Shown here: positions 1 through 29,532 of the stretch, piece by piece
Layout of the letters: the number at the start of each line of letters is the position of its first letter
Numbering within the stretch: position 1 is the stretch's first letter
Origin: Neophaeotheca triangularis
Taxonomy: Eukaryota
Assembly (NCBI GenBank): GCA_054600435.1
Contig: BAAIJX010000007.1
Location: 186,001 to 250,000 of the forward strand
Direction of reading: 5' to 3'
DNA: 64,000 nt
Translations under genes and position numbers: made by a program
Notes under the pieces: model-generated
Databases searched by the model: none
What the model saw: only the letters and a program-made list of their open reading frames with translations
What the model was told of the DNA's origin: nothing

Positions 1-693
1 TTGCACATAAGGTGGGATTGCTGCATTGCCACTACTCGGCTTTCGCGGGTGATCTGTTGCTGTACAAATGTTAAAGCGCGTTAGCTATCGCCCAGCGTGG
101 CGGTATGCAGCTGGGCGGTGCCAGGTATGCATGTCATGTGTTCTCCTAGTGAGGTTGTCACCTAGTATGCATGCCGACCTGTAGGCTGTGCAGCTTAAAC
201 GCCACGCGCTGAAGGTGCATGTACACACTCCCATCATCAAGCACACAGCCCGAAAGCACTGCCAAGAAGAAGAATCCAATGGCGACTGTCGAACTCCATT
301 GCTTCGACTTCACCTCCAGCGTCTGTAAACACGCATCCATACTCTGAGTCAGGTGTGTTGGTATACACTATGACTGCGCCCGAATACCCAGACCACTTGA
401 AGGTTAGGTATAAGAAGGTGAGGATTCCTTCTTGATTCCCTCTCCCTATCACCAACCAAGCGCGTCAGAAGCATCCCTACCTCAGGTACCTCCTTAGCAC
501 GAGACTCGTGAGACAGTGAAGCTTCAAAGCAATCACGACTGCGTCAAGTCTGTCACTTCCGGATACCTACCTACACCTGGGCAGTACAAAAGCAGCAATC
601 ATGACCTCCACCACAGCCGTCACCCACGATTTCCGGTTGCTTTCAATCCACTCTTTACGAACAAACTCTCCCGAGGGCAACAAACCCGCCAAC

Positions 694-25479: not shown

Positions 25480-26702
25480 ATGCATCTTCTCCCCGCTGTT
25501 GCGGCCCTCGTGCCATTGCTCTCCACCGCCGTGGCGGCAGAGTTCAAGCCAGCTTCCACAGAAGGTACAGACGAGTTGTACCGGCAAGGTCTCGACAACC
25601 TTGCCAAGTACGAGAAAGAACACGGAAGCCCCGAGGGCTGCGACTTGCAAACGAGTGCCATTCGAAAGGAGTGGAGTACGCTCAAGGACCAAGAGAAAAA
25701 GGACTACATCGCCGCGGTCAAGTGCTTGCAAACCAAGCCTGCCATCAGTGGAGATCTCGTCCCAGGCGCCAGGAGCCGCTACGATGACTTTGTCGGCACT
25801 CACATCAACCAAACTCTTTCAATCCACGGGACGGTGAGTTTGATGCGTTTCAATTGATCCATGCGGGTCAATGCTAACTCGCGGATCAGGGCAATTTCCT
25901 CTCATGGCACAGATATTTCAGCTGGAAGTTCGAAGAGTCCCTTCGATCCGAATGTGGCTACGAGGGCTACTTGCCCTACTTGAACTGGGGGCGTTATGCC
26001 AAAGATCTACTCAACGCTCCAGTTTTCGATGGCTCTGAAACCAGCATGTCAGGCAACGGCGCTTTCGTCGAACACGATGGCCCTTCGATCCCTTCCGTCG
26101 ACCAACCGCTCATTGTCCTCCCCGCCGGCGAGGGCGGCGGCTGCATCACATCCGGGCCCTTCAAAGATTACCAAACGAACCTCGGACCCGTGGCGCCCTA
26201 CCTCGAAGACGTCCGAGCCAATCCAAGGCCCGACGGTTTGGGCTACAACCCTCGCTGTCTGCGCCGCGACATAGGCGCCTACGTGGCCAAGCGCGAATCC
26301 ACCGACGCCAACACAACCGCCCTCATCACCGAAAATACCGACATCGGCTCCTTCCAGACCATCATGCAAGGCGTCTTCGACCAAGGCATCGTAGGCGTGC
26401 ACACCGCCGGCCACATGTGGATTGCAGGAGACCCTGGCGGTGACCTCTTCGGCTCGCCCGGTGACCCGTATTTCTTCCTACATCACTCCCAAATCGACCG
26501 CGTCTGGTGGATCTGGCAAAACTTGGACTTGGAAAAGCGGCAGAATGCGCTTGCGGGGACTTTGACGCTATTCAACCAGCCGCCAAGCAGGAACACTTCG
26601 CTTGATGATGTCTTGGAATTGGGTGTCAATGACGGTGAGGGCATCAAGATTAGAGATGCCATGAGCACTCTGGGAGGCCCGTTCTGCTACATCTACGAGT
26701 AG
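25480..26702 (+). CDS. Secreted tyrosinase-family di-copper protein; exons 25480-25833, 25890-26702
   Basis: Signal peptide; CuA His motifs (VGTH, SIHG, FLSWHR); CuB (GVHTAGH, SPGDPYFFLHH); intron 25834-25889. Confidence 0.93.
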
Positions 26703-27886: not shown

Positions 27887-28471
27887 TCAACCCTCCGGCC
27901 CAGAACCCTGTGGCACAAACTTCTTGTCACTCGTGCTGCCAAGTCCGAAGACTTTGTCATTTTTCACATCTCTTTCAGTCTCACTCGCAATATGTGGCTG
28001 GTACTTGGTGGGGGCCTTTCGCCTCAAATTTTCGAGCAGAGCACGGCAGCTCTCTTCAATGTCAGACCGACTAGTCGTCAGGATGCTGTCGTCCTTCGGG
28101 AGGAGGATGAGCGCAGCTCCGCTCAAGCGAGTAGTAGTCAGCCGCCTGTCAAGTATGGAGCCATTTTCGTTGAACCCAGTTTTCTGCAGTTGTTTTGTAA
28201 AAGCGGCTGCAACGCGCCTTTTAGCCCAGCGTCTGATGATGACCCTTTTTGTCGCATCGACAGGAACATGCACTCTCCAATGTAGTTCCTTCGGATCGAA
28301 GGCGGCTAAGCGACGCTTGGTCTTCTTATGCAGCGGGTGCGTGTCGTCCTCGAGGAAGGACTTTGTAGCTTCGAACGTGGTACAATTGATAGGGCGCGGT
28401 GTAGGTTCGTATATCAATCGTAGCAGATTGCGCACCTGCGGACGCCCGGCCCGACCGGCAGACTTGGACAT
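27887..28471 (-). CDS. Basic hypothetical protein, RnpA (RNase P protein)-like by visual alignment
   Basis: 194-aa ATG ORF in good context, divergent from eIF1A; KRVIIRRWAKRRVAAAF helix. The coding call is reasonably supported; the function is inference. Confidence 0.7.
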   Translation of the reverse strand: MSKSAGRAGRPQVRNLLRLIYEPTPRPINCTTFEATKSFLEDDTHPLHKKTKRRLAAFDPKELHWRVHVPVDATKRVIIRRWAKRRVAAAFTKQLQKTGFNENGSILDRRLTTTRLSGAALILLPKDDSILTTSRSDIEESCRALLENLRRKAPTKYQPHIASETERDVKNDKVFGLGSTSDKKFVPQGSGPEG

Positions 28472-28906
28472 GAGGTTGGTGGTACACCGTATATAGTGAC
28501 TTTATCCCCAGTGATGTGGAATGATGATAATATCATAGGAGGTAGGTATGCCAGGAGACAAAGAGTGGATTTGGCACGTGCAACGTTGGGCGCAAGTGAA
28601 AGTGACAGCCAGCCAATCAGCGGGCGACTGGATCTCTTAGCAGAAGCGCTGAAAGCGGCAAACGGGCAAAAGTCACGGCGAGCGCAGCCTCGCAGCCCAC
28701 TTGAGCGTGTGTCATAACCTCCCCGCTATTATTTCACTCCCGTCCCTCACCAACGCGGGCTTTCCCTGGTGTCCTCCACCACAAGTCCCGTCTTCTTTAA
28801 CTTTCTCCTCTACTCCTTTGCACACAACCTACCCACTCCAACCACTTCCACACATCGGCAACGAAGCCACACTACCGGACCATCGATTCACGAGTGACCG
28901 GTCAAT

Positions 28907-29532
28907 ATGCCTAAAAACAAGGGAAAGGTGCGCCACCCCACACCGGGCAGGAAAATCAAGGGTGGGGTAGTCGATTCAAAGGGTCCCTTACTGATACCGT
29001 TCCGCTATATAGGGAGGCAAGAACAGGAGACGTGGAAAGAACGAGAACGACAATGAGAAGAGAGAACTCACATTCAAGGAGGAAGGCCAAGGTAAGACAC
29101 AACTCCCGGTTGCTCGTCGACAATCCGACCCTCGAGGGAATAGGACTGTGCACTCTCTGACACCCTACTCCTTCCACAGAGTATGCGCAAGTCGTAAAGA
29201 TGCTCGGTAACGGTCGCCTTGAAGCCCTCTGCTTCGATGGCAATAAGCGTCTGGCACACATTCGCGGCAAGCTCAGAAAGAAGGTCTGGATCAACCAAGG
29301 CGACATCATCCTCCTCTCCCTGCGTGAATACCAAGACGAAAAGGGCGACGTTATTCTCAAGTACTCTGCGGACGAGGCCAGAAGTCTGAAGGTCTACGGC
29401 GAGCTGCCCGAGAATGCCAAGATCAACGAGACAGACACCTACGGCGGCGAGGAAGAGGGTGGCATCGGCTTCGATTTCGGCGAGGACGACAGCGACTCGA
29501 GCGATGACGAGGTCGATGTTGACAAGATCTAA
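28907..29532 (+). CDS. TIF11: Translation initiation factor eIF1A; exons 28907-28927, 29013-29091, 29180-29532
   Basis: Spliced [17 protein letters not shown]...[13 protein letters not shown]...[12 protein letters not shown] with an acidic tail; two canonical introns. Confidence 0.97.

Follow-up and report, generated by a model that had tools for sequence, protein, structure and literature searches.

The reading frame and its surroundings

In the window, by which we mean the whole stretch of 64,000 nucleotides of Neophaeotheca triangularis DNA that was analysed, the minus strand carries at 27887..28471 a coding sequence of 194 codons plus stop, running from ATG to stop. The first-pass annotation, made from the DNA letters, had described its product as a small, very basic protein with a basic, acid-free N-terminus, and this description proved accurate: the protein has 194 aa, a pI of 10.3 and 38 Lys and Arg vs 22 Asp and Glu residues, and its residues 1-21 contain five Lys or Arg and no Asp or Glu, E22 being the earliest acidic residue. 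The peptides quoted in that annotation are all present in the frame, at residues 1-21, 62-91 and 119-152. The coding sequence and the parts of the protein, with the evidence that delimits each given in brackets, are as follows.

27887..28471, minus strand: complete single-exon coding sequence of the RnpA-like protein (listing of open reading frames and full-length homologue alignment)
28421..28471, minus strand: residues 1-17, basic, acid-free segment before the fold, a putative short mitochondrial targeting signal (composition)
28286..28420, minus strand: residues 18-62, strand 18-22 and extra segment 1 with helices 34-41 and 48-56 (model)
28181..28285, minus strand: residues 63-97, strand 63-68 (L-H-W-R-V) and RNR-like helix 77-97 (hhalign, conservation)
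28130..28177, minus strand: residues 99-114, extra segment 2, a loop absent from bacterial RnpA (18-column gap in the RnpA profile)
28016..28129, minus strand: residues 115-152, last strand (118-123) and C-terminal helix (135-152) (hhalign, model)
27887..28015, minus strand: residues 153-194 plus stop, a poorly conserved, low-confidence tail (pLDDT; alignment consensus undefined)

The listing of open reading frames held no in-frame start 5' of M1 before a stop codon, M1 lies opposite a Met in 108 of 115 family members, and the homologue P0002 was aligned by phmmer to residues 1-179 of the query. The possibilities of a spurious frame, of an upstream exon and of a longer N-terminus were each considered and ruled out, since there is no upstream in-frame start and homologues align from residue 1. 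The frame at 27887..28471 is a real gene, well beyond a chance open reading frame.

Around it the DNA is GC-rich, as in a filamentous fungus, and contains ordinary nuclear genes. By eye only, we noted an eIF1A-like frame as the divergent neighbour (29200-29532, plus strand) and a tyrosinase-like frame at 25480-26702. An out-of-frame ATG at 28536 opens a frame of 40 codons (28414-28536, minus strand), overlapping the RnpA-like gene at its start codon, and which is possibly a uORF or else lies upstream of the transcription start. A search of sequencing runs found two metatranscriptomes that match the locus, with a small share each. One (X2, a polyA library) gave a 160-base contig inside the coding sequence (28016-28175, 2 differences), and this single contig is too little for a claim that the RnpA-like gene is transcribed; the other (X1) gave a 170-base contig at 28731-28900 (0 differences), upstream of the eIF1A-like neighbour.

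The protein family and its sequence ties to bacterial RnpA

An exhaustive phmmer search over 1.84 billion representative proteins recovered a family of 164 representative proteins at E<=1e-3 (84 at <=1e-10, 3 at <=1e-30). The top match other than the query itself has an E-value of 5.2e-48 and 50% identity over residues 1-179. The reading frame is thus conserved, as the first-pass annotation presupposed. A word-index protein search returned the query itself only, among 313 candidates. The family alignment comprises 115 of the 150 matches listed; the other 35, which covered the query partially or were much longer, were left out by eye before the family tests. In this alignment G118 is invariant and H45, P46, R80, R86, A90, L95, G99 and G104 are near-invariant. 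Among the 55 matches of an alignment-based search, all that are named are called hypothetical, uncharacterized or unnamed, and none of the 55 carries a precomputed Pfam domain. The named matches belong mostly to the Dothideomycetes, order Pleosporales, as judged by the taxonomy of three species. A wider range, across Ascomycota and Basidiomycota, is suggested by the labels of Atlas clusters, which serve here as leads only; one basidiomycete cluster has the bacterial RNase P protein family (Ribonuclease_P, PF00825) on 18% of its members.

Several relatives carry additional parts. Four of them (P0008, P0024, P0033 and P0039), mutually 44-51% identical across both parts, have a La domain behind the RnpA-like domain. 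The same arrangement is found in a metagenome contig (L113:1121-2116), in one uninterrupted frame of 331 codons whose start resembles a presequence and whose La domain lies at 241-297 (E 3.4e-17), and so the fusion is, in at least that case, real DNA and not a merged gene model. The La fusion connects the RnpA-like domain with RNA ends, be they mitochondrial or nuclear, and it could be equally compatible with a role on nuclear pre-tRNAs. In another relative, P0074 (334 aa), the RnpA-like part is followed by an RRM_1 domain (E 2.3e-18, residues 225-294), in what may be a true fusion or a merged gene model. In P0064 (521 aa), P0070 (462 aa) and P0073 (347 aa), 150-340 extra residues precede the RnpA-like domain; no Pfam match at E<=0.05 was found in them, and they may be long presequences, added domains or gene-model errors. 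The protein encoded in the window consists of the RnpA-like part only, with no La or RRM domain.

Searched alone, the query found no family in either Pfam (E<=10) or NCBIfam (E<=1), and among PDB sequences it retrieved a designed repeat at E 1.4 only. The family profile, run against all PDB sequences, among which we count the structures of fungal mitoribosomes, gave two chance rows only (E>1), and so, by sequence, the protein is not a chain of any solved complex. The first-pass annotation would have been contradicted by a best match to a ribosomal or other known protein, and the PDB sequence searches returned no such match.

The link to RnpA emerged from the relatives. PF00825, whose curated cut-off is 22.3 bits, was matched by 18 of the 115 aligned members at E<=1 and by 19 of the 149 listed non-self relatives at E<=0.05, all of the relatives' matches centring on profile positions of about 40-75; two relatives only score above the cut-off, P0103 (22.9 bits) and P0104 (23.9 bits). 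Of the 24,736 Pfam models, La was the only other family to recur among the 149 listed relatives (n=4). The NCBIfam model TIGR00188 rnpA (cut-off 38.35 bits) was found in all seven relatives that had been preselected for a PF00825 match, each time below the cut-off, and the other NCBIfam rows for these seven proteins were two RNase P equivalog models only. As the query and most of its relatives lie below the curated cut-offs, we regard the protein as a diverged homologue, and not as a member of the RnpA family as that is delimited.

For profile comparisons, the RnpA template was E. coli rnpA and then 29 proteobacterial RnpAs, spread over one phylum. Aligned by hhalign to these 29 sequences, the family gave a probability of 69% (P 4.3e-5, score 34.7) over 62 columns, while the best of the controls (2 reversed and 20 column-shuffled) scored 15.8, with P of at least 0.079. 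The aligned stretch starts at profile position 43 and takes in the strand that precedes the RNR helix and everything from there through the C-terminal helix, so that only the last two thirds of RnpA, towards the C-terminus, are matched. When the template was a narrow alignment of enterobacterial RnpAs (20 sequences), the match was weak (1.5%, E 0.035) and fell on the RNR motif. In the opposite direction, an HMM built from the 29 RnpAs detected 11 of the 150 family proteins at E<=0.01, and 0 of 150 among both the reversed and the shuffled sequences. Sequence profiles therefore tie the family to RnpA, as had been proposed, and to no other recurrent family save La (n=4).

Predicted fold, RNR-like motif and N-termini

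An AlphaFold2 model built on the family alignment has a mean pLDDT of 87.2 and a pTM of 0.73, with pLDDT values per 10-residue block of 92-98 over residues 21-150 and of 54-78 in the blocks after 150. It comprises a strand (18-22), two helices (34-41 and 48-56), a strand (63-68), a long helix (77-97), a strand (118-123) and two helices (129-132 and 135-152). When the model was structurally aligned to 48,161 representative chains, RnpA chains took ranks 1-3, namely those of T. maritima (1nz0; Z 8.2, 87 aligned residues, rmsd 2.5), S. aureus (6ov1; Z 7.5) and E. coli (2ljp; Z 5.9), with Z of 7-8 being reachable without kinship according to the search tool's own note. The ranks below them were held by RNase W, the RNase E 5' sensor and exosome RNase PH subunits (Z<=5.8). 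We would place the structural weight, for what is a predicted model, on the fact that the three listed RnpA chains lead and on their agreement with the sequence evidence.

Foldseek against the PDB gave no match at E<=1e-3; its top rows were the RnpAs of S. aureus (E 0.11, probability 0.99) and of B. subtilis (probability 0.98), and its ranks 4-17 held RnpA chains of E. coli, T. maritima and again S. aureus and B. subtilis among other S5-domain-2-like proteins. An independent model, that of the relative P0103 in the Atlas, had a bacterial Ribonuclease P cluster among its neighbours (TM 0.49 by query, 0.66 by target). The predicted fold is hence an RnpA-type alpha/beta sandwich (S5 domain 2-like), as the first-pass annotation had anticipated, with RnpA at the top of both the chain search and Foldseek.

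The structural alignments place 86-89 residues within the model span 14..152/153, beginning from RnpA residues 25-30, which leaves roughly 50 model residues extra. As these alignments begin at RnpA residues 25-30 and the hhalign alignment begins at position 43, the N-terminal helix of RnpA is unmatched. The model, the structural alignments and hhalign together locate the two insertions relative to RnpA that had been suspected earlier, at about residues 23-62 and 99-114. The former contains a family motif, H-P-[LF]-[HY], whose H45 is found in 108 of 115 members and P46 in 105 of 115; the latter contains conserved glycines (G99 in 107/114, G104 in 112/112). Behind it, residues 115-152 are aligned to the last strand and the last helix of RnpA and include the invariant G118 (115/115).

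In the register given by hhalign, the family motif S-K-K-x-V-V-R80-[S/N]-W-A-x-[R/K]85-R86-V-[R/K]88-x-A-F lies opposite S-K-K-x-G-x-A-x-x-R-N-R-I-K-R-x-x-R-E-x-F of RnpA, such that R80 is paired with the first Arg of RNR, R85 with the second member of the Lys-Arg pair, position 88 with the next Arg and F91 with the Phe. The basic positions are widely kept (R80 in 113 of 115 members, R or K at 85 in 105, R86 in 108, R or K at 88 in 90), as is the Phe. The Asn of RNR is retained in 31 of 115, Trp takes the place of its second Arg in 87 of 115, and the residue at the Lys position varies. Judged from this alignment, the RNR motif is partly kept in the fungal family. The earlier observation of an Arg and a basic pair at the RNR-motif positions agrees with both the register and the conservation counts.

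Compared with bacterial RnpA (the C5 protein), the fungal protein is alike in being small and very basic and in having an alpha/beta core with the order basic helix, strand, C-terminal helix. It differs in length (194 aa with two extra segments vs about 110-130 aa), and the family differs in leaving the N-terminal helix of RnpA unmatched, in the Trp at the second Arg of RNR and in falling below the curated HMM thresholds; moreover, the fungal protein is eukaryotic, nuclear-encoded and has a presequence-like N-terminus. Considering all this, we find it very probable that the gene encodes a highly diverged, nuclear-encoded homologue of bacterial RnpA, with two extra segments.

As to its location, the segment that precedes the first strand has a median length of 27.5 residues in the family and is only 17 residues long in the query, which is short for a cleavable presequence; the query's residues 1-16 contain four Lys or Arg and no Asp or Glu. 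Across the family this segment is rich in Ala (13.4%), Ser (11.4%), Pro (9.9%), Thr (9.0%) and Arg (8.2%), and Asp plus Glu make up 3.0% of it vs 10.3% of the remaining protein. No Asp or Glu is found in the first 20 residues of 80 of the 108 family N-termini, and 101 of the 108 have at least two Lys or Arg. An acid-poor, basic N-terminus rich in Ala, Ser, Thr and Arg is the textbook description of a matrix-targeting presequence, and these family N-termini suggest that the RnpA-like protein is probably mitochondrial.

A possible protein cofactor of mitochondrial RNase P

The mitochondrial DNA of many fungi includes a gene for an RNase P RNA. In bacteria, the RNR helix of RnpA binds the catalytic RNA, the cleft formed by its sheet and N-terminal helix binds the 5' leader of the pre-tRNA, and the protein raises both the substrate affinity and the activity of the ribozyme. 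That the fungal protein acts as a cofactor of an RNA-based mitochondrial RNase P, as the first-pass annotation put forward, is a putative role whose chances we consider evenly balanced. In such a mechanism, the acid-free basic N-terminus would direct import into mitochondria, where contact with the mitochondrion-encoded RNase P RNA, the product of rnpB, would be made by the RNR-like helix (R80, R/K85, R86, R/K88), while the 5' leader of mitochondrial pre-tRNAs would be held by the face of the sheet and the added helices. The protein retains the core of RnpA (the sheet, the long basic RNR helix, the last strand and the C-terminal helix) and has acquired a stretch of helices behind the first strand and, following the RNR helix, a loop that contains glycines; the family helices 34-41 and 48-56, with their H-P-[LF]-[HY] motif, may substitute for the missing N-terminal helix of RnpA. 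In filamentous fungi, the protein would then fill the place that the unrelated Rpm2 has in budding yeasts.

Precedents for such a protein exist outside fungi. A nuclear-encoded RnpA of bacterial type serves an organellar RNase P RNA in Ostreococcus, as summarized in PMC4919922, and a highly diverged, nuclear-encoded RnpA is predicted in the jakobid Andalucia godoyi in the account given in PMC7050145. In both Ostreococcus tauri and Andalucia, as these sources describe them, a nuclear RNase P protein of bacterial type accompanies an organelle genome with an RNase P RNA, which is the arrangement proposed here. However, the Andalucia protein is reported there to be recognised by a standard domain model (COG0594), whereas the fungal family lies mostly below threshold and is known from sequences, and the Ostreococcus protein is described as working with the RNA and complementing E. 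coli, whereas the fungal role is deduced from sequence and a model. Within fungi, the proposed protein resembles Rpm2, of the S. cerevisiae mitochondrial RNase P, in its supposed role as nuclear-encoded partner of the mitochondrial RNase P RNA, although its size (22 kDa vs 105 kDa for Rpm2) and its fold assignment make membership in the Rpm2 family implausible. In a 2012 review (PMC3790967), Rpm2 is named as the sole protein to have been identified from an RNA-based RNase P of organelles, with an occurrence confined to close relatives of yeast, and the composition of the enzyme in fungi other than budding yeasts is called unknown. The same text relates that seven polypeptides of 16-55 kDa, left unidentified, copurify with the mitochondrial RNase P of A. 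nidulans, a size range that an RnpA-like protein of 20-22 kDa would fit, as a match of size alone. PRORP, the protein-only RNase P, is stated to be absent from fungi in PMC10941002, and rnpB is annotated in the mitochondrial DNA of Bipolaris (PMC7225605), of nematode-trapping Orbiliaceae (PMC7174627) and of some basidiomycetes, with recurrent losses (PMC11277600). A family member is found in Curvularia, which belongs to the Pleosporaceae as does the rnpB-bearing Bipolaris; as evidence of co-occurrence this is an anecdote only.

Three other explanations have to be weighed, and one of them shares the ancestry that we propose. The protein may descend from RnpA and have no role in RNase P, acting instead as a mitochondrial RNA-binding protein in RNA chaperoning, RNA decay or ribosome assembly. 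We consider this unlikely, in that the parts of RnpA that are retained are those that touch the RNase P RNA, and no sequence match to any solved mitoribosome chain was obtained. Also, rnpB-bearing fungi need a protein partner, and none is known outside the budding yeasts according to PMC3790967. What speaks for another job is that the RNR motif is partial, with Trp at its second Arg, that the leader-binding N-terminal helix of RnpA is unmatched, that the extra segments are specific to the family and have their own conserved residues (H45, P46, G99, G104), that some relatives have added RNA-binding domains (La or RRM), and that rnpB was repeatedly lost in fungi, as noted in the review PMC11277600.

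The very basic composition, with a K-K-T-K-R-R stretch, the short N-terminal segment of the Neophaeotheca triangularis protein and the subfamily fused to a La motif would also suit a nuclear or cytosolic RNA-binding protein that acts on nuclear pre-tRNAs or other small RNAs, the La motif being best known for binding the 3' ends of nuclear Pol III transcripts. Yet the family N-termini are acid-poor, rich in Ala, Ser and Arg and of a median 27.5 residues, those of the fusions (M-S-R-A...) included, and nuclear RNase P subunits are absent from the 50 best structural matches; the subunits of fungal nuclear RNase P are, moreover, already catalogued, as PMC4919922 indicates. A nuclear or cytosolic role is, in our judgement, quite improbable. 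To the last explanation, in which the protein shares the S5 domain 2-like fold only, independently or through another member of the superfamily, and has no specific kinship with RnpA, we give a slight probability. It draws on the 9-14% sequence identity in the structural alignments, on the presence of the RNase E 5' sensor, RNase PH, EF-G domain IV and Lon at Z 4.4-5.8, and on the query being below every curated threshold, but it has to contend with the recurrence of Ribonuclease_P in 19 of 149 relatives, in one motif region and twice above the cut-off, with a profile-profile alignment that is in the RNR register and far above its controls, and with RnpA outranking all other members of the fold. 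On balance, a diverged RnpA that acts as a mitochondrial RNase P cofactor appears to be the best explanation of the whole.

The literature searched, which left subscription journals largely outside, yielded no paper naming an RnpA homologue in fungi. Since an automatic PF00825 tag is already present on some basidiomycete relatives, the novelty lies in recognition and breadth, and not in principle. RnpA is presented in PMC7050145 as an ancestral bacterial feature with a highly punctate distribution in eukaryotes, and an RnpA-like family extending across the Dikarya would broaden this distribution. For filamentous fungi, the conserved RnpA-like gene is a concrete candidate for the missing protein of the mitochondrial RNase P. 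Taking the lines of evidence jointly, we tentatively entertain the possibility, somewhat doubtful as it is, that the family constitutes the mitochondrial RNase P's missing protein subunit across the Dikarya, in filamentous ascomycetes as well as basidiomycetes, a vertically inherited RnpA of the endosymbiont that was relocated to the nucleus. If this is true, RnpA was retained in fungi too, and not just in green algae and a few protists; the exception would be the budding yeasts, in which RnpA was replaced by Rpm2, while one clade would have added a La motif.
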